Positions 8,467 to 49,778 of a stretch of DNA of 64,000 bases are shown here, one piece after another. The notes beneath the pieces are model-generated. The model saw only the letters and a list, made by a program, of their open reading frames with translations, was not told where the DNA came from and did no database searches. Positions within the stretch are counted from its first letter, which is position 1. Every line of letters begins with the position of its first letter. The DNA lies in the IMG/VR virus record IMGVR_UViG_3300012928_000001, positions 1 through 64,000 of that record; one strand, written 5' to 3'. The stretch is from a virus. A program made the position numbers and the translations under genes.

Positions 8467-8748
8467 ATGACCACCGCGACGCCCATCACCATCGAGACCC
8501 GCCCACTCGCCTACTTTCGCGCCCACGCGGAGCCCCACCCCGCACGGGTCGACCTGAACAGCTTCCGGGCCGGCTGGATCCTGTGGTGTTACCTGCGCGG
8601 TGACGAGGACTGCAAGAATGGCGCGGAGCTCATGGGCTACCAATACGCGGCCGAGTACAACGACAACGGGGGCGGCGCTCGCCCGAGTGCGGAAGACGCG
8701 CAAGATCTTGACGCGAGCGATATCAAGCAAGCGATCGAGTGGCTCTAA
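8467..8748 (+). CDS. Early array hypothetical protein
   Basis: Partial leader GAAAGCCAAGATC-ATG; stop abuts copy 8. Confidence 0.7.
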   Translation: MTTATPITIETRPLAYFRAHAEPHPARVDLNSFRAGWILWCYLRGDEDCKNGAELMGYQYAAEYNDNGGGARPSAEDAQDLDASDIKQAIEWL

Positions 8749-8855
8749 CTTTTTTCGAAAAATCGCCAGATTGCTCTTGCACAACCTGCACAACTTCGAG
8801 TAAGGTTCTTTCACCGGGGGCGAGAGAGACCGCTCCCAAGAAAGCAGACAAGATC

Positions 8856-9188
8856 ATGGCCCTTCCCAAGACCTCCCCCGCCCTCCCCGCCCTGACCCTC
8901 GCCATCCTCGCCGCCGATGGCCGCGAGCTCCGCGAGGCCATGTTCCCGAGCGCCAAGACCGCGGGCGACGCGCTCAAGGCGCTGGGCGCCAAGCGCCACG
9001 GCCGCTCCCGCGTCTTTGACGTCGAGTACGCCGGGCGCACCATGACCGTTCAGATCCACAAGATGGGGCACAACGCGTTCCGCGTTTGGCGCATCGACCA
9101 GCTTCAGGCTTTCTGGGCCGAGACCGTGAGCGAGAGTGTCCTTTCGGACTACAGCGAGGGCCGCGCCGTGATCGAGTACATCGGCTAG
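8856..9188 (+). CDS. Early array hypothetical protein
   Basis: ATG follows copy 8; stop abuts copy 9. Confidence 0.7.
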   Translation: MALPKTSPALPALTLAILAADGRELREAMFPSAKTAGDALKALGAKRHGRSRVFDVEYAGRTMTVQIHKMGHNAFRVWRIDQLQAFWAETVSESVLSDYSEGRAVIEYIG

Positions 9189-9295
9189 AACTTTTTTCGA
9201 AAAATCGCCAGATACCACTTGCACAACTCGCACAACTTCGAGTAGAGTACTTTCACCGGGCGAGAGAGACCGCCCGCAAGAAAGCAGACAAGATC

Positions 9296-9538
9296 ATGAC
9301 CGCCAAGACCGCTCCCGCCCTCGTCGTCCCCGCCCTCTACGATGTCAAGACCCGCCTGATCCTGGTCCGCGTGAGCGACACGCGCAGCGAGCTTCGCATC
9401 GCTACCAAGCGCGGCGCGGTGCGCCCTTTGGCCAAAAACTCGTTCATCATGGACGCTGCACACGAAAACGCGCTCGCTTACGCCAAAACTCTGCACGCGA
9501 CCCCGGGCGAGCTGTTCGGCTGCGCCATCTACGCCTGA
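9296..9538 (+). CDS. Early array hypothetical protein
   Basis: ATG follows copy 9; stop abuts copy 10. Confidence 0.7.
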   Translation: MTAKTAPALVVPALYDVKTRLILVRVSDTRSELRIATKRGAVRPLAKNSFIMDAAHENALAYAKTLHATPGELFGCAIYA

Positions 9539-38363: not shown

Positions 38364-39098
38364 ATGCGCTACGTAGGCGGCAAGACTCGGATCGCAAAAG
38401 AGCTCACCCCGTTCATCCTCGCGGCGGCCAAGAAAGCTGGCACATCGACGATCATCGAGCCCTTTTGCGGGGGCCTGGGCATGACGTGCGCACTCGTGAA
38501 AGCGTCGCCGTTCGTTCGCGTCGAGGCCAGTGATTACGCGCCCGGACTCATCACGCTCTATCGCAGCATCCGCGCCGGATGGAAGCCGCCCACCGATCTA
38601 GACAAAGCGCAGTGGGCGGAGCTCAAAAAGCGCGCGGGCGAAGATCACCGCCTAGTTGCATTCGCGGGGTTCGGGTGCAGCTTCAATGGGATCTACTTTT
38701 GCGGGTACGGGACCGAAAAGTTCCCCGGACAGGCCGCGCGAGGGCTCCGCAAAAAGCTCGACATCTGCACGCCCAAGCGGGTCACCCTAGAGTCCCGCAG
38801 CTATGCGGACATCGAGGTCACCGGCCCGTGTGTGATCTACTGCGATCCGCCCTATCGTGGCTGTGACCGCGACTCCTATCGCGCCCTGCACGGCACCCCA
38901 CACGAGCGATTCGACAGCGACGCGTTTTGGGAGTGGGCTCGCGTGTGCGCGGACAAGGGCGCGCATGTGCTCGTGAGCGAGTACGTAGGCCCGGACTGGG
39001 CGCGCGTACTGTGGCAGCGCGAGATCGTCTCCATGACCGGGAATCACAACGGTAAGGGCGACAAGGCAACCGAGAGGTTGTTTTACGTCGCGCCTTGA
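38364..39098 (+). CDS. DNA adenine methyltransferase (Dam/D12 class)
   Basis: MRYVGGK, EPFCGG, IYCDPPY, VLVSEY motifs. Confidence 0.9.
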   Translation: MRYVGGKTRIAKELTPFILAAAKKAGTSTIIEPFCGGLGMTCALVKASPFVRVEASDYAPGLITLYRSIRAGWKPPTDLDKAQWAELKKRAGEDHRLVAFAGFGCSFNGIYFCGYGTEKFPGQAARGLRKKLDICTPKRVTLESRSYADIEVTGPCVIYCDPPYRGCDRDSYRALHGTPHERFDSDAFWEWARVCADKGAHVLVSEYVGPDWARVLWQREIVSMTGNHNGKGDKATERLFYVAP

Positions 39099-40639
39099 TT
39101 CATGCTGGTCCCACCATGGGCGTACCAAAAGAGCAATTCGATGAATGGGTAGAGATCCCCTGGACGTTTCCCGAGGACACCATGTGTTGGGACGGCGACC
39201 GAGGTGGGACGGCGCCGCTACTCCTCGAAGACTATCAGCGGCAGTTCATGGACTGTCCGGCGAAGTATCGGGGTGTGAACAAATCGCGCCAGGTGGGGTA
39301 CTCATTCGTGTTCGCGGTCGAGTCGCTCACTCGGGCGATCATGGACCCCGGCCACACGTCGATGTTTGTCAGCTACAACCTCGACGACGCGCGAGAGAAG
39401 ATCACGATCATCCACAAGCTGCTCGATCTCAGCCCGGCGCTGCACGGTCTCGCTGATTTCGACGCGCTGAAAAATGACGTGAAAGTGAAGCCCAAGTGGG
39501 CGCGCAAGTGGTCGCTGATTCGGTCCCTCCCGTGCAGGCCCGTGCGAGGAAAGACCAAGGCTGATCTGTACCTCGACGAGATCGCCCACTATCAGGACGC
39601 AGAGCAGGTCTATCTCGGCAGCGCGCCCGCGACCGTGCGCTCCCTGACCGGTGGACAGATCACCGTTGCCAGTACCCCGAACGGGCGTGCTGGCATTTTC
39701 TGGGAGTGCATCGAGGGCCCGCGCTCGCGCCCGTACTGGAAGCAAAACGTCCCGTGGTGGGAGAGCCGGTATCTGTGCAGCGATGTCGAGCTCGCGCGCC
39801 GCGAGGCCGGGCTCATGACCACGGACGCGCGCATCTCAAAGTTCGCGCTGCCCAACCTCGTCGAGCTCTACGATGGCATGGCGCTGATCGACTTCCAGCA
39901 GGAATTCGAATGCGATTTTGTCGACGATGGATCGTCATACTTCCCGATGGACCTTCTCAACAAGAACGTCTGTCGGGATCGCCGATTGTGCCGAGATTTT
40001 GATGAGGTCTTGGAGAAGCGCCACCCCAAGGGCCAGCTTTTCGCCGGGGTCGACATCGGGCGATTCAAGGACACCACCGAAGTGGTGATTCTCGATCGGT
40101 GGCCTACGGAAAGCGCGTCAACGGGGTACGCCTATAGCCCGATGATGGTCATGACCATGGACCGCGTGAACACTCAGGAGCAAGGCGACCGGCTAGAGAC
40201 GCTCTTGAAGCATCCTGCGATTGAGCGGCTCTGGATCGACACTACTGGCATTGGTCTCGCCATCGGCGAGCGCCTGCGCAACGCCTTCCCTCGCAAGGTT
40301 GTGGGCGTCATGTTCACGACCCCGAGTAAAGAGCTCATGTGCGTGCTAGCTCGGCGCTCGTTCGAAAGGCTACTCGTCGACTTGCCTGATCCCGAGCACG
40401 AGGACAGCCGCGCCGGCCGTGAGGCCCGACTGTTCATCGATCACATCCACTCGATCAAGCGCCACGCGGGGACGGGCCGGCACGCTCGCTATGAGGCCGA
40501 GAGCACGACACACCACGGCGATCAGTTCTGGGCCTTTGCGCTCGTCATGCTGTGCGCCCATGAGGACCTGAAACCGCGACGCGATACGGCAACCCTGCGA
40601 GACGTTATCGACGTTTCGCTAGAGGCGAGTTTGGTATGA
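39095..40639 (+). CDS. terL: Terminase large subunit
   Basis: KSRQVGYS (Walker A), LYLDE (Walker B), ASTPNG, nuclease GVDIGRFKD, IDTTGIG, HGDQFWA. Start may be ATG 39116. Confidence 0.93.
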   Translation: MIHAGPTMGVPKEQFDEWVEIPWTFPEDTMCWDGDRGGTAPLLLEDYQRQFMDCPAKYRGVNKSRQVGYSFVFAVESLTRAIMDPGHTSMFVSYNLDDAREKITIIHKLLDLSPALHGLADFDALKNDVKVKPKWARKWSLIRSLPCRPVRGKTKADLYLDEIAHYQDAEQVYLGSAPATVRSLTGGQITVASTPNGRAGIFWECIEGPRSRPYWKQNVPWWESRYLCSDVELARREAGLMTTDARISKFALPNLVELYDGMALIDFQQEFECDFVDDGSSYFPMDLLNKNVCRDRRLCRDFDEVLEKRHPKGQLFAGVDIGRFKDTTEVVILDRWPTESASTGYAYSPMMVMTMDRVNTQEQGDRLETLLKHPAIERLWIDTTGIGLAIGERLRNAFPRKVVGVMFTTPSKELMCVLARRSFERLLVDLPDPEHEDSRAGREARLFIDHIHSIKRHAGTGRHARYEAESTTHHGDQFWAFALVMLCAHEDLKPRRDTATLRDVIDVSLEASLV

Positions 40640-41214
40640 GCAAACGGAACATCAACGCACTGATTGAAAAGCGCTACCAACAGCACGTCGCCGCGGCGCG
40701 CAAGCGCAATGGGGGCAAGTCGCTGACGCCGATAGAGCAATCGAAGCTGCGCCAATTCGCCGAGCTCGACGTGCTCGGAACCGATCGCACGTCACTCGCC
40801 GACTACGACAAGGAGCAGGCCGAGAAACGGCGTCACGAGCAAGTGGTCAGCGATTTGAAGCGCGACGAAGCGCGCGAGGTGTTCGAGGCCCGGCGACTGC
40901 TGGAGCTTTTTCCTGACGATCCATTGTGACTCGCATTGCTGGCCAGCCTACAGTCGAGCATGGAGAACGCGATCCCCGATCGACTGTACACACTCGCGCA
41001 AGCTGGCCTCGCTACCGACGACCCCGATTCAGGGCTAGAAGTCACGTTTGAGCTGCGCCGCGGCATCACGGAGCAGGCCGCGAGCGGCTACTTGACCCCG
41101 TGGCGCCTCGCGGGGTGGCGCGTGCACGTGGCCATGCGCCGCAAGCGAGTTCGCGTCACCCTCGACGGGCGGCTCCCCCGTGCGCCCCGTTGCCGGCTCG
41201 TGTAAGCTCGCCTC

Positions 41215-42474
41215 GTGGCAACGCTCACCGATGCTGATTGGTACACGCTCACCGGGGATACGTATGTCCAAAACACGGCGCAGCTTTTTGCCGCTAGTTT
41301 CGAGGACACGATCACTCGTGCGCTCGCAGTCTTTGGCCCACGCACTGGACCGTTTGGCGCCGAGCTGGACAACGCGCAGCTTTACGGGATCTTGCAGACG
41401 CAGGGGATCACGTTCACGTCCGCGCAAGTGATCGACTCGGTCAACGTGCTTTTGCAGCGCGGGATCTTCTACCGCACGCTCGGCCCGAACCGTGCCGAGT
41501 ACATCAAAGCCGAGAATCAGGTGCCGCCTTTTTCCGAGGGTGGTGCTGGCTTTGGCGACGCGGCCACGAGCACGGCCGTCCCGGTGATCCGCCGCGGCCC
41601 TCAGGGGGAGCCCGGGCTGCAAGGCCCCGCCGGCCCCCAGGGGCCGCGAGGAATTCAGGGCACGACCGGCGTCCAGGGTCCCCAGGGAGCCACAGGCCCG
41701 GCCGGTGCCATGGGACCCCCAGGGCCCCAGGGCGACCCAGGGCCCGCGCTCGTGCCCGAGTCGTTCGCGTGGGCGTCGACGCAGCTCATCACCGCGGTCG
41801 CCAACACCTTCTACCTCATCTTCCCGGGGGCGCCCTCGGGCATGTTGACGCTTCGGCTCCCGGTCACGCCCCCGAACGGGACGCGGATCGGCCTGAGTCT
41901 CCCGACGAGCTCGCTCGCGGCGGCGGGGCAGCCCCTGACCTTGCTCGGCGGCGGCGCGACCATCTCGCTCCCGGTGGCCAATGAAGCCATGACTGTCCTC
42001 CTACAGCCAACCGATCCGCTGCTCCGCCCCGGCTTCGGATTGATCTTGACCTACTCGCAGAATGGCAATAGGTGGGTTACGTCTACCTGGTTTCAGGATG
42101 AGATCAATTTGCCGATTGGGCCTGATCGGCGAAACTCGTTTACGTCGACCGGAACTTACATCGATCTCGAAACACTCGGTACGGTTGCCGAAGGCGAAGC
42201 GTTCACATTCGAGGGGTCGGTGTCCGCGAGCTATCAGACCGGAGCGGGCGCGCGCTTCGTGGACATCATCCAAGTTCGTGGCACTGCTCGGCGCAACATG
42301 GGTGCACCCGGAACAACCGTGACAAGCAACATGCTTCCGAGCGGCAACCTACCCGGCGGCGACGCGCGGATCTTCGTGGTCGCCGGACAGAACGACGTGC
42401 GTCTACAGGTTCGCACGACCACCGCGGGCCAGACGTTGATCGTCGCGTGGAATGGAATTTGGCGATCGCTGTGA
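41215..42474 (+). CDS. Collagen-repeat virion/fiber-like protein
   Basis: About 17 Gly-X-Y triplets followed by beta-rich domains. Confidence 0.75.
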
Positions 42475-43188
42475 CTCGCATGATCGTTCGGCCTACAGTA
42501 GGCCGTGCCACGCAAAAAGACATACGACCCCAGCCGGGGTAAGCAGACCTGCAAGCGCTGCGGCACCGAAGCCCGGCCGCTCCGCCACAACAAAACGTGC
42601 GCGCTTTGTGGGGTCACGTGTTGCATGAATCAGCCCGGCACCGTCTCCGGCTTGGTCTGCGAAAAGCCGACCCGGCAGTCTCGCCGTAGCCGCCGGATAA
42701 ACCCGGAGGGCGTGTGGGTGACCAAGGTTTTTTGCTCACAAAAATGCGTCGACAACTTCGCCGTTGTGCAGACGATCAGAGGTCTTTGACATGAACGAAA
42801 ACGAGCTACTTCAATCCGTATTCAGCAAATGCCCCGTGTGCGAGGGCCCGGTCGACATCACCACGGCGGAGACCGTGAGCGTGCCGCGAACAGACGGGGG
42901 CGACTTCACCGAAGTCGTGGTGGTCTGCTCGGAGAGCTGCGCCGCCGCGGCCGAGACCATCGCAGCGATCGAGGCCGACGACGGCCGCCACCGCGAGCAC
43001 GAGGAAGAGCCCGAGGCCGACGTGAAGCCCGGAGCCAAGTTCCACGCGTACACGCTCGACGAGTTCAAGCGGCCCGAGCCTGACGAGGCCGACGACATCT
43101 CGCGCAAGTCGATGGCCGAGCTCATGGCCGGCGAGCTCCAAGAGCGCAGCGACGCATACTGACTCGGGTGTGGTAGGCTGGGCGCTCC

Positions 43189-43755
43189 ATGACCGCGCCT
43201 AACCTCGAACACATCGTGACGCCGTTGCGCCAGTTCGCCGTCCCGATTTCCGACCTGACCCCGGACCCGAAAAACGTCCGAATCCACAGCAAGCGCAACC
43301 GCGATGCGCTGCGCGTCAGCTTGACGAAATACGGGTTCATTGAGCCGATCATCGTCCAGCGGCAGGGCATGATCATCCGCGCGGGGAACTGTCGCACGAA
43401 GCTCGCGGGAGAGCTCGGATGGACCCACGTCCCCGCGCTCATCGTCGACCACAACGACGTCGAGGCGACGGCCTTCGCCATCACGCACAATCGCACAGGC
43501 GAGCTCGGCGAGTGGGATGAGAAGGCCCTCGCGCAACAGCTCGCGGAGCTGCAAGCGAGCTCGATCGAGCTGTTCACGACGACGGGTTTTGACGCGGCCG
43601 AGGTCGATAGGCTGCTCGGGACCCCGCTCGTGATTCCTGACGACCCCGTCGAAGAGCTGACCCCGCCGGACAGCTTCCCGGAGATCGACGGGACCGAGCC
43701 CACCGATCACCGCTGCCCCTCGTGCGGCTACGAATGGAACGGGAAGTCGAAGTGA
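43189..43755 (+). CDS. ParB/Srx-like N-terminal domain protein with C-terminal CPSCG
   Basis: ISDLTPDPKNVRIH, SLTKYGFIEPIIV, AGNCR, NRTGELGEWD, CPSCGYEW; family commonly adjacent to phage DNA-modification genes. Confidence 0.85.
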   Translation: MTAPNLEHIVTPLRQFAVPISDLTPDPKNVRIHSKRNRDALRVSLTKYGFIEPIIVQRQGMIIRAGNCRTKLAGELGWTHVPALIVDHNDVEATAFAITHNRTGELGEWDEKALAQQLAELQASSIELFTTTGFDAAEVDRLLGTPLVIPDDPVEELTPPDSFPEIDGTEPTDHRCPSCGYEWNGKSK

Positions 43756-44006
43756 TCGAGCAGCTCCGCCGTCGGCTCGACTATACCGACCGCCTACTGG
43801 TCCGGCTGCTCTCGCAGCGGTCGGGTCTCGTGGCCAAGGTCCAGCGCGCCCGCGCAGCCGGGGGCGGGCCCTCGCGGGACCCTGAGCGTGAGGAGGTCGT
43901 GCGAGCCCGCGCCGAGCAGCTCGCCCGCGAGCTCGGGGGCTACCCGCCCGATGTTGTGCTCACGATCTTCGAGATTCTGTTCGCCAACGCGGAGCGGGCC
44001 CAATGA
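43752..44006 (+). CDS. Chorismate mutase, AroQ class
   Basis: IEQLRRRLDYTDRLLVRLLSQR...RDPEREEVV...IFEILFANAERAQ retains the AroQ Arg/Arg/RDxxRE/terminal Gln pattern; GTGA and ATGA overlaps with both neighbours. Confidence 0.85.
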   Translation: MIEQLRRRLDYTDRLLVRLLSQRSGLVAKVQRARAAGGGPSRDPEREEVVRARAEQLARELGGYPPDVVLTIFEILFANAERAQ

Positions 44007-45091
44007 AGCCGCCGTACTACGTGCCGACCATGGCTGTGGTCGAGGCCGCGCGGGGGACCAATGGCTACACCGCGGTCTCGACGTTCTCGGGCGCGGGCGG
44101 CAGCTGTCTCGGGCACACCCTCGCCGGCTTCGCTGTGCTGTGGGCGAATGAGTTCATTCCCGCTGCGCAAGATACCTACATGCGGAATCATCCTACCTCG
44201 CATCTCGATACCCGAGACGTGCGAGAGGTGCAGGGCGCCGACATCCTGAACGCGGTCGGAAAAGACATCGGGGAGATCGATCTTTTCGATGGCAGCCCGC
44301 CGTGCTCCGCGTTCTCGAATGCGGGGAGTCGGGGCCAGCAGTGGGGAAAGATCAAAGGCTACAGCGACACCAAACAGCGGGTTGATGATCTGCTCTTCGA
44401 GTTCGCGCGTCTCGTCGCGTTCACGCGCCCGCGGGTGTTCGTCGCTGAGAACGTTGGGGGGTTGCTCCGCGGTAAGGGGTTGGGACGGTTTCGGGAGCTC
44501 GTCAAGCGTCTGCCGGGGTACACGATCCGCGCTCAGACCATGGACGCGGTTTGGATGGGCGTCCCCCAACGCCGCGAGCGGGCGATCATCATCGGTGTTC
44601 GCAGTGATCTAGGAGTGCCGCCAGCATTCCCGAAGCCGCTGAAATACTACTACACGGCCGGAGACGCGCTCCCGTGGCTACGCGCTCCCGCGGGCACCCG
44701 CGTTGCGCGTCTGGGCGAGATCACCGATCGCGTCCCTCTAGCCAAGAGCCGGCGCGAGGGCAAAAAGTACAACACCTACGAAGTGCTCCCACATAGGCCC
44801 TGTCCCACCGTCACCGTGGCGAGCGATGGCAATGACCTGTTTATCATCGGTCCGACTGAGCAGGAAGCCAATGCTGGCATCATCGCGCCCGCGGACCCGC
44901 GGAAGATCAATATCTCCGAGCTCCGCCGCCTGTGTGGCTTTCCTCCAGACTTCCAGCCTACTGGGTCGTTCTCGAAGCAATATGAGCGACTCGGCCGCGC
45001 TGTTCCGCCACCCATGATGTGCGCCGTAGCCTCGACGATCCGCGATGCTGTGCTACGAAAAGCAGACCATGGGCAGCAACAGCAGCATTGA
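44003..45091 (+). CDS. DNA cytosine-C5 methyltransferase-family enzyme, probable carboxymethyltransferase
   Basis: FSGAGG (I), GSPPC (IV), ENV (VI), QRRER (VIII); motif X reads GRAVPP instead of the usual GNAVPP. Confidence 0.9.
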   Translation: MKPPYYVPTMAVVEAARGTNGYTAVSTFSGAGGSCLGHTLAGFAVLWANEFIPAAQDTYMRNHPTSHLDTRDVREVQGADILNAVGKDIGEIDLFDGSPPCSAFSNAGSRGQQWGKIKGYSDTKQRVDDLLFEFARLVAFTRPRVFVAENVGGLLRGKGLGRFRELVKRLPGYTIRAQTMDAVWMGVPQRRERAIIIGVRSDLGVPPAFPKPLKYYYTAGDALPWLRAPAGTRVARLGEITDRVPLAKSRREGKKYNTYEVLPHRPCPTVTVASDGNDLFIIGPTEQEANAGIIAPADPRKINISELRRLCGFPPDFQPTGSFSKQYERLGRAVPPPMMCAVASTIRDAVLRKADHGQQQQH

Positions 45092-45782
45092 TCACACCCC
45101 CGAGGACCGCTGGGTCTTTGACGAGTCCGTCGCGGATTGCTTCGAGGACATGTTGTCCCGATCCATCCCACAACACGACGAGATGCGCCGACTCGTCGGC
45201 AACGTCGGCGGGGTCGGGGTGGCCGACGGGACCCTTGTCGTTGACTTGGGATGTAGCCTCGGTCAGGCGATTGTCGACGTGCGCCGAGTAGCTCTCTCGC
45301 GTGGCATCAATGCGGTGTATCATGGGCTGGAGACGAGCGCTCCGATGCTTGATCGTGCCAAAGCGCGATTCGACTCTGTCGATGTCTTTGTAACGAACGA
45401 AGATGTGCGGACATGGAACGGCGACAACTGTAGCGTGGTGCTGGCAGTGCTTACGCTACAGTTCATCCCGATCAACTACCGACAGCAAATCATCCGCAAC
45501 GTATTCGAGTCCCTGAACCCCGGTGGGCGCTTCGTGCTCGTCGAGAAAGTGCTGGGCGAAGGGGCGCAGGTCGATGATCTCATGGTCGCGCACTATCACC
45601 ACAACAAACTCCAACAGGGCTATTCGAGGCAAGCTGTACGAGCGAAAGCGGAGTCCCTCGAAGGTGTGTTGGTCCCGGTGACTGCTGGCATGAACGAATC
45701 GATGCTTCGCCGTGCGGGCTTCCGTGAGGTAGACTGCTTTTGGCGATGGATGAATTTCGCGGCATGGGTGGCGATCAAGTAG
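45069..45782 (+). CDS. cmoA: CmoA-like carboxy-S-adenosylmethionine synthase
   Basis: WVFDESVADCFEDMLSRSIP, DLGCSLG, LTLQFI, LNPGG..VLVEK, GYS...K..SLEGV, AGF...NF match the CmoA family pattern end to end. Confidence 0.8.
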   Translation: MGSNSSIDHTPEDRWVFDESVADCFEDMLSRSIPQHDEMRRLVGNVGGVGVADGTLVVDLGCSLGQAIVDVRRVALSRGINAVYHGLETSAPMLDRAKARFDSVDVFVTNEDVRTWNGDNCSVVLAVLTLQFIPINYRQQIIRNVFESLNPGGRFVLVEKVLGEGAQVDDLMVAHYHHNKLQQGYSRQAVRAKAESLEGVLVPVTAGMNESMLRRAGFREVDCFWRWMNFAAWVAIK

Positions 45783-46490
45783 CCTGCGAACACCCGAGCC
45801 CCACAGAGCTCGTGCCCGGCGTGAAGTTGTGTCGGGGCTGTGGGGCTCTCCATGTGAACGGTCGATGGGGGCGCGTCCCGTTGCCCCCAAAGCCGTGCTG
45901 TGAGGAGTGCGAGCAGAACCGTCGACGGCTCGCCGATACTTGGTACAGAGAGCGTAAGTGTGCAGGTTGCAAATGAGATCCGGCGCGCGTTTCTCCGCGC
46001 CCAAATGCGCGTTGATCTGGAGCGCAACCTAGACGCGCTAGCAGATGCGCATGGGGTGAGCGTCGAGTACGTCGCGGGTATGATCAAACACGTGATCGAG
46101 ACCTGCGCGGGGGACCACGTTGACATGCTCTTCGCCGTAGACAGTCGGCTCCAGCGGGGCGTGCATGTCGAGCCCGTCGCGCCCCTGACCGAGACCGTCA
46201 ACAAAGTACAGGCGGCGCTGTCGTCAGGCCTGAAAGACGTGGTATCGTCTGGCCCGAATGCGCTACAGCGTGAAAGTCTTCGCCGTCCGGTGTGACGAGA
46301 AGGGCCGGCGCCTGCCCACCCCCGAGGGCAAAAAGCCCTACGTCGCCCAGGACCGGGTTCACGTCGAGGCCCAGGGACACGATGCCGCCAAGGCAGCTGC
46401 GCGCGCCGAGCTGTCCAAGGGCCGTGGCCGGGTCATCTCGATCAACTTCGAAAGCGATACCGCGCTCGTGGCGTACGTGGAGAGCAGCAA

Positions 46491-47791
46491 ATGAGTCGCC
46501 GTGCAATCATTGGTAACGAGGCCGATCTAACGCGGCATCTCCCGACCGACCCCAACGACCCCGACACGCTCGTCACGGGCAATTCGGAGACCTACGATGT
46601 GTCGCGGTTTCAGATGCAGACGGCGGCGGTACACTTCGGTTTTGACGCGGGCTCTTCTGGCGACTACACGCTACAGGGAGCCGTTGGTAGTTCGAGTCCT
46701 TGGGTGGATATTCAATCGAACATCACAAGCGATACGCTGATCAACTTCTCGGAGCCGCCGAATAATCATTACTGGGCTCGGTTGCGTGTTGTTGTGAATA
46801 CTGTAGGCGCCGAAGATGATACAATCACCCTCGGCGCGCACGAGTACGTTTGGTAGTCGCAAAAAGGAAATAAAAGATGCCCGGCCGCAATCCAGTTTTT
46901 CCTGCCCCGCGAGATATTCGTCGTCAAACGTACTATCCCGGCGTTTCGCTATCGCTTGCCGAGATGGTCGCGCTCGGCCATATCGCGGGCGCAAAAATTG
47001 TGCACTTTACCGGACGCCGAGAAGATGTAGACGGTGAGGCCGAAGCATGGTCGGCACTCCTACCGACTACGCGTGCCCCATACCGGCCCGATATTTCTGG
47101 CGGACCTATTGGGTGGACTCCCGAGCCTTTGACGGCGCAGAGTACTTCGTCAGATGACGGGGGCGCCGGATCGGGTGCGCAGGTACTACTAGTTGAATAC
47201 CTGAACGCGGATGGGTTTGAACGCATTGGTCTCGCACTGCTCGCGGGAACGGGGACAGTACCGGTTCTCGAAGCAACGTCACAAGGTGTTGGTAATGCAA
47301 ACACCATTGTCCCGTTGATGCCTCCAACGCCTGCTACGGGAGTACGCGTAAACCGCGTAACAGTAGTTGCCGGTGGTGTGCCAGCAGGGAACTGCACCGT
47401 CGAACTTGGTGGTCAAGCTGCACAGCGGCTGCTTCCGGGTCAAGCGCTGTCATCGACAAGTCGCTTTACTGTGCCACGTGGATTTATTGGGTTGATTCAC
47501 GGTCTCGGCTATGGTGTTGATCGTGAACAGCGGGGGCTCGTGCGTGTTTATGCACAGCCGCTCGGGCGGCTGGACTATGAGTTCACCGCCTACGAGGCCA
47601 GTAACGGTGCCCTTGCGGTACCGCTTGCAGAGCCAATTCGGCTAGCACCGCTGGGTGAGTTGGGACTAACTTTTGAAAAGGACTCGGGTGGTGGAAACAT
47701 CGATGTATCCAGCATTCTGCAACCGATCTTCCTCCCGGATCCCAACGACCCTGATCCAGCGCCAGAACGACAAGCGCCGCCGTTGGGCTGA
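46491..47791 (+). CDS. Two beta-rich putative virion proteins (46491-46856, 46877-47791)
   Basis: G/S/T/V-rich beta-strand composition; immediately upstream of portal. Confidence 0.5.
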
Positions 47792-47798
47792 GTAGAAC

Positions 47799-49778
47799 AT
47801 GAGTGCTCTAGACGCTTTTTTTGCTACTGAGTTGCCGCCTCAACGCTCCTCGGTAGAAAAAGTCGACACAGCAAATGACGCCGTAAGTAAGGGGTCTGTG
47901 CGTACGTCATACACGGGACGAGACGGTACAGAGCGAAGCAACGTACTACAGACAGACGCAGGGACGCGACGGTTGTTCGCACGGCATGGTGCCATTGAGC
48001 CGCCTTTGGACCCTATTATGCTTGCGCATTTGCACGAGATGAGTGGGGCGCTGCGCTCAAACATCGATGCATATGTCACTAACATTGACGGTTTCAGCCA
48101 CACGTTTGAGCCGTCACTAGATCTTGACGATGACGAGACCCGCGAGCGCATCGCCCAGGCCATGCTCGAAGAGCGGATCCTCGGGGTGGTCCAAGAGGCG
48201 AGTGTCGAGGAGCAGGCCAAGCGCCTGCTGAAAGAGTTCGCCGCCGCGAATGATGGGGAGGATGGAGAGCCGACCGGGGCCGACGATCAAGCCCCCCTCG
48301 ACGTCACGCCACCGACCGATGCCGAGGTCGAGGCACGGATCGACGCCATCCGCCGGGAGATGATCCGCGAGCGCATGCGGCTCGAACGGTTTTTTGAGTT
48401 CTGCTGCGTCACGGAGAGTTTCATGTCTCTTCGCATGCGCACGCGGCAGGACATCGAGCTGATCGGGAATGGCTATTGGGAGGTGCTGCGCAACTCCAAC
48501 GGCGACATCGTGCAGTTCACGTATGTGCCAGCATTCACGGTGCGACTACTCCCGGCCGACAAGGACCCGATCGAGGTCGAGATGCCGGTGAAGCTCACCG
48601 CCATCACGGAGAACACCGAGACCGTCGTTCGCCGCTTCCGCCGATTCTTGCAGATCAGCGAGACCCGCGAGCGCACGGTGATCTACTTCAAGGAGTTCGG
48701 CGACCCACGCGTGGTGAGCTCGAAGACCGGCGAGGTCTACGAAACCCCCGAACTACTGGCAAAGGCGGAGGGCGACACTCGCCCCGCTACCGAGATGATC
48801 CACTTCAAAGTTCACAACTCCCGGACGCCCTACGGCGTGCCCCGGTGGGCGAGTGAGCTGCTCGGAGTGCTCGGCAACCGCAACGCCGACGAGGTCAACC
48901 TCGCGTACTTCGAGAACCGTGCGATCCCGCCGATGATCCTCACCGTCTCGGGTGGTCGTCTCGCGGGTGACTCCGCGACGGTCTTTGAGAACTACTTCAA
49001 ATCCCAGATCCGCGGCAAGCGGCACCATCACAGTGTGGCGATTGTCGAGGCCGAGCCCCCGGGACTCGCGGGCGGCATGACGAACGGCACCGTCAAGCTC
49101 GACGTGATCAAGCTGCGCGATGTCCAGCAGGATGACGCGATGTTCATGGGCTACCGCGAGGCCAACGTCGACGCGATCGGCTCCGTGTTCCGCATGCCCC
49201 GGCTGCTCCGCGGCGACGTGCGAGACTTCAACCGCGCGACCGCCCAGACCGCCCTCGACTTCGCCGAAATGCAGGTGTTCGCACCGCTCCGCGCTGAGTT
49301 CGATTTCACGATCAACCGGCAGATCCTCGCCGACTTTGGCGTGCGGTTTTGGAAGTTCAAGAGCGGCACGCCGGACTTCTCCGACCCCGCCGAAGTGCTG
49401 CAAAATCTCCAGCTCGCGGAGAAGTACCTCGTGCCCAACGAACAGCGCGAGGCGGCCGCGGGAGCCCTCGGCCGCGAGCTCGAAAAGCTCGACGCGGCCT
49501 GGGCCCGGGAGCGTCCTCTCGCCGTCACGCTCGCCGCCATCGAGCGCAAGACGAACCTGGTCGACGTCGACGGCGAGGCCCTGCCCGAGCAGGAGCCCCC
49601 GCCCCCACCCGAGGCCAAGCCGCTCGCGGGCGGGCCCCCAGGAGTCGACGAGGGCGAGGAAGAGCAGGCCAAGGCTATCCGCAAGAGCGTCGACGAGCGC
49701 GTGCGCGACCTGATCGAGCTGCGCGACGCCGCCGATCGGCTCGGGTTCCTGTCGACCAAGGACATGCTCGATGTGTGA
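47799..49778 (+). CDS. Portal protein (PBSX/XkdE-like)
   Basis: IEPPLDP, GNGYWEVLRN, EMIHFK, YGVPRW, YFENRAIP, FRMPRLLRG, NRATA motifs. Confidence 0.92.
   Translation: MSALDAFFATELPPQRSSVEKVDTANDAVSKGSVRTSYTGRDGTERSNVLQTDAGTRRLFARHGAIEPPLDPIMLAHLHEMSGALRSNIDAYVTNIDGFSHTFEPSLDLDDDETRERIAQAMLEERILGVVQEASVEEQAKRLLKEFAAANDGEDGEPTGADDQAPLDVTPPTDAEVEARIDAIRREMIRERMRLERFFEFCCVTESFMSLRMRTRQDIELIGNGYWEVLRNSNGDIVQFTYVPAFTVRLLPADKDPIEVEMPVKLTAITENTETVVRRFRRFLQISETRERTVIYFKEFGDPRVVSSKTGEVYETPELLAKAEGDTRPATEMIHFKVHNSRTPYGVPRWASELLGVLGNRNADEVNLAYFENRAIPPMILTVSGGRLAGDSATVFENYFKSQIRGKRHHHSVAIVEAEPPGLAGGMTNGTVKLDVIKLRDVQQDDAMFMGYREANVDAIGSVFRMPRLLRGDVRDFNRATAQTALDFAEMQVFAPLRAEFDFTINRQILADFGVRFWKFKSGTPDFSDPAEVLQNLQLAEKYLVPNEQREAAAGALGRELEKLDAAWARERPLAVTLAAIERKTNLVDVDGEALPEQEPPPPPEAKPLAGGPPGVDEGEEEQAKAIRKSVDERVRDLIELRDAADRLGFLSTKDMLDV

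Follow-up and report, generated by a model that had tools for sequence, protein, structure and literature searches.

DNA carboxymethylation in phages is known from Synechococcus phage S-B43, where it depends on two enzymes, CmoA and CmoX (Yang et al., Nat Commun 2025, PMC12783734). CmoA of S-B43 (SpCmoA) is a fast synthase of carboxy-S-adenosylmethionine (Cx-SAM), while the wild-type DNA cytosine C5-methyltransferase homologue SpCmoX accepts only Cx-SAM, makes 5-carboxymethylcytosine (5cxmC) at GC sites and needs CmoA in vivo (PMC12783734). Arg350 of SpCmoX contacts the carboxymethyl group of Cx-SAM, and SpCmoX-modified DNA resists HhaI (PMC12783734). Glycine is added by the ligase CmoY, and in the virion DNA of S-B43 only the resulting glycine amide, 5gcxmC, was detected and no free 5cxmC (PMC12783734). 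The candidates found in phage contigs amount to 5,615 CmoX (with the SPPC motif and Arg350), 4,257 CmoA, 2,251 ligases and 1,660 ParBc proteins; the availability of prephenate was named as needing investigation, and depletion of S-adenosylmethionine (SAM) was raised as a possible side effect (PMC12783734). From the synthetic side, a cascade of chorismate mutase (CM), CmoA and a methyltransferase has been engineered in which chorismate gives prephenate, prephenate serves to make Cx-SAM, and the last enzyme carboxymethylates its substrate (Herbert et al. 2020, PMC7496830). Here we analyse a related operon at positions 43189-45782 of the IMG/VR virus record IMGVR_UViG_3300012928_000001, the first 64,000 nucleotides of which are referred to as the window. 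Four genes follow each other head to tail on the + strand and code for a ParB-like protein, a CM, a C5-methyltransferase (C5-MTase) and a CmoA homologue. IMG/VR lists the record as a complete phage genome with direct terminal repeats; its length is 105,163 bp and its G+C content 64%.

A first-pass annotation, made from the nucleotide sequence alone, had read these genes as a 5cxmC pathway with its own prephenate supply. It had also stated that the M.MpeI variant N374K uses Cx-SAM and that carboxymethylation of cytosine has been reported in a cyanophage. Both statements are borne out by the literature, the cyanophage being S-B43 with its CmoA/CmoX pair and with the amide instead of the free base in its virions (PMC12783734). 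The pathway fits every sequence test that was run, but it cannot be claimed as a novelty, as CmoA/CmoX with ParB nearby was already in that report. Since the CmoA/CmoX core was published by Yang et al. (December 2025), the core of the operon is a new member of their system, and the apparently new element is the embedded mutase. No CM accompanying phage CmoA/CmoX was found in the report (PMC12783734), in its three supplementary files or in the searchable literature, and against that literature the earlier suggestion of a new arrangement holds.

The open reading frames (ORFs), their family matches and their junctions are as first described. The ParB stop and the CM start share GTGA, the CM stop and the C5-MTase start share ATGA, and the C5-MTase and CmoA genes overlap by 23 nt, or by 47 nt if the upstream CmoA start is used. 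The four-gene operon is translationally coupled. A sigma-70 promoter scan of 40500-48000 gave no match, and terminator-like matches in the same region are weak, none of them being convincing within the operon block.

The CM gene (43752-44006, + strand) codes for 84 amino acids from a GTG start, or for 90 or 94 from the upstream starts ATG 43734 and GTG 43722. Its PF01817 score is 52.3 bits (cut-off 27; 51.5 bits in a six-frame search), and the product is predicted to be a small monofunctional homodimeric chorismate mutase of the AroQ class. Arg11', Arg28, Asp48, Arg51 and Glu52 of the E. coli enzyme (EcCM) correspond to R6, R23, D43, R46 and E47 of the window protein, and these residues are invariant in all nine phage CMs compared. 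The mapping relies on the conserved PxxD spacing and on the known active-site positions of EcCM. We also considered whether so short an ORF could be a chance frame in GC-rich DNA; this was rejected because it scores well above the Pfam cut-off, its catalytic residues are invariant and a sister lineage has a dN/dS of about 0.2. When two copies were modelled together the ipSAE was 0.87, compared with 0.01 for the best of three controls, with run agreement of at least 98% and pLDDT of at least 89; when this score was calibrated, 20 of 30 solved pairs attained the mark, as did one of 23 single chains. Passing it may be due to no more than resemblance to solved AroQ dimers and is no proof of binding. 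A full HMMER search of 1.84 billion representatives returned no relative of more than 50% identity, the top matches being anonymous small mutases. No match was obtained by tblastn in 50,697 cultured phage records, no relative by a pattern scan of IMG/VR, and only the protein itself by a word-index protein search.

Two substitutions count against the proposed role of this mutase. The column of the catalytic Lys39 of EcCM is occupied by Arg34 (codon 43851-43853), which aligns with an Arg of the Corynebacterium glutamicum enzyme 5MPV, and the equivalent of EcCM Ser84 is Ala. Among natural enzymes, Arg at the Lys39 site is the hallmark of the AroQ-delta subclass (Arg46 in MtCM), whose members are weak unless bound to DAHP synthase; MtCM alone has less than 1% of typical activity (PMC7762937). 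The window protein could accordingly be a weak or regulatory mutase-like protein that needs a host DAHP synthase as partner or senses chorismate or prephenate. One related metagenomic cassette does pair a CM with a phage DAHP synthase (see below), and in DAHP synthases of the Bacillus subtilis type the CM-like domain has been called a functional homologue of the pathway CM (PMC5526877). However, a Pro-x-x-Asp loop between helices H1 and H2 marks autonomous, highly active mutases, being PVRD in EcCM and PRLD in the MtCM variant reached by directed evolution (PMC7762937). The loop of the window protein is PSRD and its C-terminal residue is Gln. In addition, Lys is kept at the Lys39 column in six of the nine phage CMs, and a type I DAHP synthase is not encoded in the complete genome of the window phage. 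We therefore regard a weak or regulatory role as distinctly unlikely. Because of the PSRD loop and the C-terminal Gln, and despite Arg34, the window protein looks like a naturally autonomous Arg-type mutase.

The C5-MTase (44003-45091, + strand) is a protein of 362 amino acids that matches PF00145 with 155.9 bits and carries the motifs SPPC (residues 98-101, catalytic Cys101, codon 44303-44305), ENV (149-151) and QRR (189-191). Its best match in the PDB is SpCmoX itself (8YF3; 177.4 bits, E 4e-51), followed by HaeIII with 72.9 bits. Residues 288-353 align without gaps to residues 306-371 of 8YF3, and the SPPC motifs of the two proteins align as well. The Arg that had been pointed out in the motif X sequence GRAVPP is Arg332 (codon CGC, 44996-44998); it falls on Arg350 of SpCmoX, in a column where HaeIII has the motif X Asn. 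The defining features of the CmoX group, i.e., the SPPC motif, Arg at the position of SpCmoX Arg350 (Asn304 of HhaI), a closer match to CmoX than to ordinary C5-MTases and a nearby CmoA, are all found in the window enzyme. Motif X Arg is present in 88 of 90 related CmoX ORFs. The two homologues of the Asn type (L046:565-1644 with GNSVPP and L047:1607-3103 with GNAVPP) lack CmoA in their loci, whereas 73 of 80 related loci have it. They seem to be either natural reversions or representatives of the ancestral state, and since they lack CmoA they serve as a natural control that supports the link between Arg and CmoA. A point on the other side is that the target-recognition region of the window enzyme is not alignable with that of SpCmoX. 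All in all, we consider it very probable that this is a CmoX-type DNA cytosine C5-carboxymethyltransferase which, together with the CmoA of the operon, belongs to the published CmoA/CmoX system.

The CmoA homologue (45069-45782, + strand) comprises 237 amino acids, or 245 if translation starts at ATG 45045. It matches phrog_4752 with 227 bits, and its best match in the PDB is E. coli CmoA (4GEK, 122.7 bits). Its assignment as a Cx-SAM synthase meets two objections. The TIGR00740 score of 163.8 bits is below the NCBIfam trusted cut-off of 193.3, and Arg199, Tyr39 and Asn132 of the E. coli enzyme are replaced by Ala, His and Val, respectively; a salt bridge links Arg199 with the carboxylate of the cofactor (PMC3663124). 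Nevertheless, the biochemically validated SpCmoA scores even lower on TIGR00740 (115.6 bits) and has Glu in the Arg199 column, so loss of this residue does not disqualify the window protein. Among 65 CmoAs from CmoX cassettes this column holds Arg in 32, Glu in 20, Lys in five and Ala in four. Lys198 is kept in 64 of the 65, window included, and the SAM-binding residues Asp62, Gly64, Ser66, Asp117 and Phe137 as well as Glu164 are all identical in the window protein; Lys198, Asp62, Gly64 and Phe137 are essentially invariant across the set. Because a proven enzyme scores lower and also lacks Arg199, we take the window protein as a putative Cx-SAM synthase, subject to the caveats of Arg199 and the cut-off. 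A divergent CmoA subtype, scoring only 45-54 bits on TIGR00740 with CmoA still as the best family, was seen in the main CM-bearing clade (L033, L065, L040, L023, L070 and L095-L101) and in many loci without CM (e.g., L027-L037).

The same two genes could also be explained by an ordinary 5-methylcytosine enzyme placed beside a CmoA that serves host tRNA modification or depletes SAM to counter SAM-dependent defences. The identity to SpCmoX is only about 34%, and SAM depletion has been raised as a possible side effect (PMC12783734). Yet Arg332 occupies the carboxylate-binding position, and the Arg-type methyltransferase and CmoA co-occur tightly. The cofactor preference of wild-type SpCmoX points the same way (PMC12783734). 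Furthermore, the phage genome has no CmoB and hence does not encode the tRNA route. This explanation thus appears highly improbable, and we retain the assignment of the pair as CmoA/CmoX. The operon enzyme is the only C5-MTase found in the 105-kb genome.

The first gene of the operon (43189-43755, + strand) codes for a ParB-like protein of 188 amino acids with a ParB N-terminal domain and a C-terminal tail containing CxxC. It matches PF02195 with 29.4 bits (cut-off 26.3) and phrog_620 with 126.6 bits. CmoX cassettes usually begin with a ParB-like gene, the product of which probably has a role in DNA binding or loading.

Taken together, the operon suggests the following route. The phage mutase would convert host chorismate to free prephenate, and CmoA would combine prephenate with SAM to give Cx-SAM. 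In CmoX, Arg332 would hold the carboxylate of Cx-SAM while Cys101 attacks C6 of cytosine, and the carboxymethyl group would be moved to C5, giving 5cxmC. Since each Cx-SAM, and with it each modified base, would consume one prephenate, a shortage may be expected: the demand of many progeny genomes should outrun the tightly regulated host pool, and a phage mutase that is presumably outside host control would relieve this bottleneck. We judge the complete route from CM through CmoA and CmoX to 5cxmC to be likely, and to a similar degree that the mutase supplies the prephenate for CmoA. By analogy with the HhaI resistance of SpCmoX-modified DNA, 5cxmC would most likely shield the phage DNA from host nucleases. 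The gene identities, the motifs and the recurrent linkage are read directly from the sequence; from these we infer the activities, the rationale of a limiting supply and the final base.

The linkage of CM to the cassette was assessed in 80 IMG/VR loci in which CmoX is 40-59% identical to that of the window. A ParB homologue is found directly upstream of CmoX in 75 of these loci, CmoA in 73 and an Asn-synthetase-like ligase in 29. PF01817 matches were obtained in eight of the 80 records, with none elsewhere in those records. Seven of the eight mutase genes directly adjoin CmoX: six follow ParB and precede CmoX, and one separates CmoX from CmoA. The eighth is found some 0.8 kb beyond CmoA. A scan with the commonest CM type, represented by locus L033, added seven further contigs, and all 11 contigs that this query found have the order ParB-CM-CmoX-CmoA. 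In total, 16 IMG/VR contigs, window included, have a CM in or beside the CmoX/CmoA cassette. They represent five CM sequence lineages and three gene orders; the identity of each lineage to the window CM is 23-32%. The nine-sequence CM alignment was too divergent to be used as a seed for a scan of the collection, and scans with the DAHP synthase and CM of locus L080 and with the CM of locus L061 gave self-matches only. An AroH-type mutase (PF07736) was absent from the first 50 CmoX records. The mutase of the L033 type is under purifying selection (median dN/dS 0.195). The CM-bearing loci are fairly GC-rich (53-67%), a trend that is weak and confounded by relatedness.

A CM acting as a general auxiliary metabolic gene, which alters aromatic flux or drains chorismate from siderophore, folate or quinone synthesis and lies in the operon by accident, is another reading. 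Phages do carry many metabolic genes of unclear use, and most CmoX cassettes are without CM. Against this, all CM matches in the 15 other records are either part of the cassette or no more than about 1.1 kb away. With one record per lineage, random placement would put the gene in or next to the cassette in every one of the five lineages with a probability of roughly 2.5e-5. Five differing lineages in one context, the start/stop overlaps of the gene with its neighbours and the failure of the window CM to match any of the cultured phage records by tblastn also make an incidental position very unlikely.

The view that the mutase was repeatedly recruited to feed CmoA has to be weighed against several observations. 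Although the CM label requires six changes on a quick CmoX tree, the well-supported (starred) branches force only two, and 12 of the 16 CM-bearing contigs fall in one clade, which means few independent events. Approximately 90% of the 80 sampled cassettes have no CM. None was detected above the Pfam cut-off in nine of nine cultured phages that carry CmoA, a CmoX-like methyltransferase or both, among them S-B43, TurkishDelight, PaBG, an Erwinia jumbo phage and Alcaligenes phage Afa-NA1. Moreover, in vitro the spontaneous rearrangement of chorismate sufficed for CmoA, and CM could be omitted (PMC7496830). Since most cassettes lack CM and this uncatalysed reaction can keep up with CmoA in vitro, CM is an accessory or booster of the cassette and not a requirement. 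Two single loci may be mentioned in this connection. L069 is without a mutase, its sister L100 and 10 other members of the clade having CM between ParB and CmoX, which suggests recent loss. In the cultured jumbo phage Yersinia phage fHe-Yen9-02 (L109; OR620964.1:212880-213047) there is a sub-threshold CM_2 match of 26.4 bits, compared with the cut-off of 27, with cmoA about 26 kb away.

A second enzyme of aromatic biosynthesis was found in L080 (IMGVR_UViG_3300045116_000113). At positions 8569-9405, between CmoA and CM, this contig encodes a full-length type I-beta DAHP synthase that scores 374 bits on TIGR01361 (cut-off 268) and only 98 bits on the KDO8P synthase model. The DAHP synthase and CM are part of a phage-like block and are followed by MT-A70, DnaB, SSB and sugar-nucleotide genes. 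The presence of the first shikimate enzyme within a phage DNA-modification operon seems to be unreported. A C-terminal fragment of a DAHP synthase was also seen in the related L062 (3-323), at the cut edge of the contig, and a ParB-CmoX-ligase-CmoA cassette follows after about 0.8 kb. The window genome, apart from having no type I DAHP synthase, has no MetK. On balance, we lean slightly towards the broader proposal that phages have repeatedly recruited shikimate enzymes into the CmoA/CmoX cassette (CM in at least five lineages and DAHP synthase in one) with prephenate as the limiting compound, and that the window phage would be self-sufficient from chorismate to 5cxmC, with an autonomous Arg-for-Lys mutase and the first virion predicted to contain unligated 5cxmC.

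The last point depends on the ligases. No PF00733 match, no homologue of SpCmoY and no homologue of the ligase of Streptomyces phage TurkishDelight was found in the 105-kb genome, and the ligase is present in none of the eight CM-bearing loci among the 80, a weak trend confounded by relatedness (Fisher p = 0.046, uncorrected for it). Amide ligases occur in about 40% of related cassettes; since this genome encodes none of the searched kinds, plain 5cxmC may be the end product in the DNA of the window phage. It could instead be an intermediate only, converted to an amide, an ester or a decarboxylated form by the product of a small flanking gene (42505-43162 or 45740-46856). The precedent of S-B43, whose virions held the glycine amide alone (PMC12783734), is in line with such a conversion, as are the ligases of 29 of the 80 loci and several neighbouring ORFs without a family match. 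Given the complete genome without a ligase homologue and the ligase-free loci that carry CM, we find further conversion unlikely and keep plain 5cxmC as the predicted base. A different gene content is seen in a complete phage of 92 kb (L063:7301-10557), the CmoX of which is nearest to that of the window on the quick tree. Three genes stand there between CmoX and CmoA, coding for an Asn-synthase-like ligase, a DegT/DnrJ-type aminotransferase (266 bits) and a myo-inositol-1-phosphate-synthase-like protein (111 bits), which hints that an amino-sugar or aminocyclitol amine is ligated onto 5cxmC.

The operon is placed between the genes for the large terminase (39095-40639) and the portal protein (47799-49778). 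The terminase has its best match, 31% identical, in Brevibacillus phage Emery. Immediately upstream of the terminase gene, at 38364-39098, a D12-class (Dam-like) N6-adenine DNA methyltransferase is encoded, and the phage therefore probably carries a second DNA modification. Between the terminase gene and the modification operon, positions 41215-42474 code for a protein of 419 amino acids with a block of collagen-like Gly-X-Y repeats and tail-fibre PHROG matches. Three small Cys-rich ORFs with CxxC pairs flank the operon (42505-43162 and 45740-45976); they have no family match and may code for zinc-ribbon proteins. The stretch is contained in sequencing runs of two marine metagenomes only, which may be the source of the phage; no RNA data set was listed as containing it.

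The presence of CM in the operon, and of DAHP synthase in L080, offers a concrete and testable answer to the question of the prephenate source left by Yang et al. It would be another case of a phage that brings its own precursor supply for DNA modification, and the window phage predicts a natural genome with bare 5cxmC, so far unobserved. Cx-SAM-dependent labelling of DNA is in use in sequencing chemistry (PMC12015181, PMC13288465), and the natural operon suggests that a small unregulated mutase, when co-expressed, could raise the cellular yields of Cx-SAM and 5cxmC. Should the mutase be inactive or irrelevant, the finding shrinks to another member of a family with thousands of candidates.

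Compared with the described systems, the window operon shares with S-B43 the CmoA, the C5-MTase with SPPC and motif X Arg, the common presence of ParB-domain genes in the context and the location in a phage genome. The two differ in that S-B43 has the ligase CmoY, no CM and the order CmoA-CmoY-CmoX, while the window has ParB-CM-CmoX-CmoA and no ligase. The closest cultured relative is TurkishDelight (gp122-125), which has the order ParB-CmoX-...-CmoA, a CmoX of 43% identity, a similar size and a high GC content. In TurkishDelight, however, a ligase of the glutamine-amidotransferase/Asn-synthetase type lies between CmoX and CmoA, and its genome has no CM_2 match. The CmoA fold and family are common to the window and the E. 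coli CmoA/CmoB pathway of cmo5U (4GEK), and so is, by prediction, the reaction of SAM with prephenate to Cx-SAM; the acceptor in E. coli is ho5U of tRNA through CmoB, whereas in the window it is predicted to be DNA cytosine through a Dcm-like enzyme. With EcCM (AroQ-alpha) and MtCM (AroQ-delta) the mutase shares a length of approximately 84-90 residues and the catalytic Arg, Asp and Glu. The fold of this family is a three-helix intertwined homodimer, of which the dimer is predicted for the window CM. The protein is a hybrid that resembles AroQ-delta in having Arg instead of the catalytic Lys, and autonomous enzymes in its Pro-x-x-Asp loop and C-terminal Gln, and it belongs to a DNA-modification operon, unlike EcCM and MtCM of the amino-acid pathway. 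In M.MpeI N374K, similarly to CmoX, a basic residue at the motif X Asn switches the cofactor. Both this variant and the cascade of Herbert et al. are artificial, whereas in the window the three enzymes are brought together in a natural operon.

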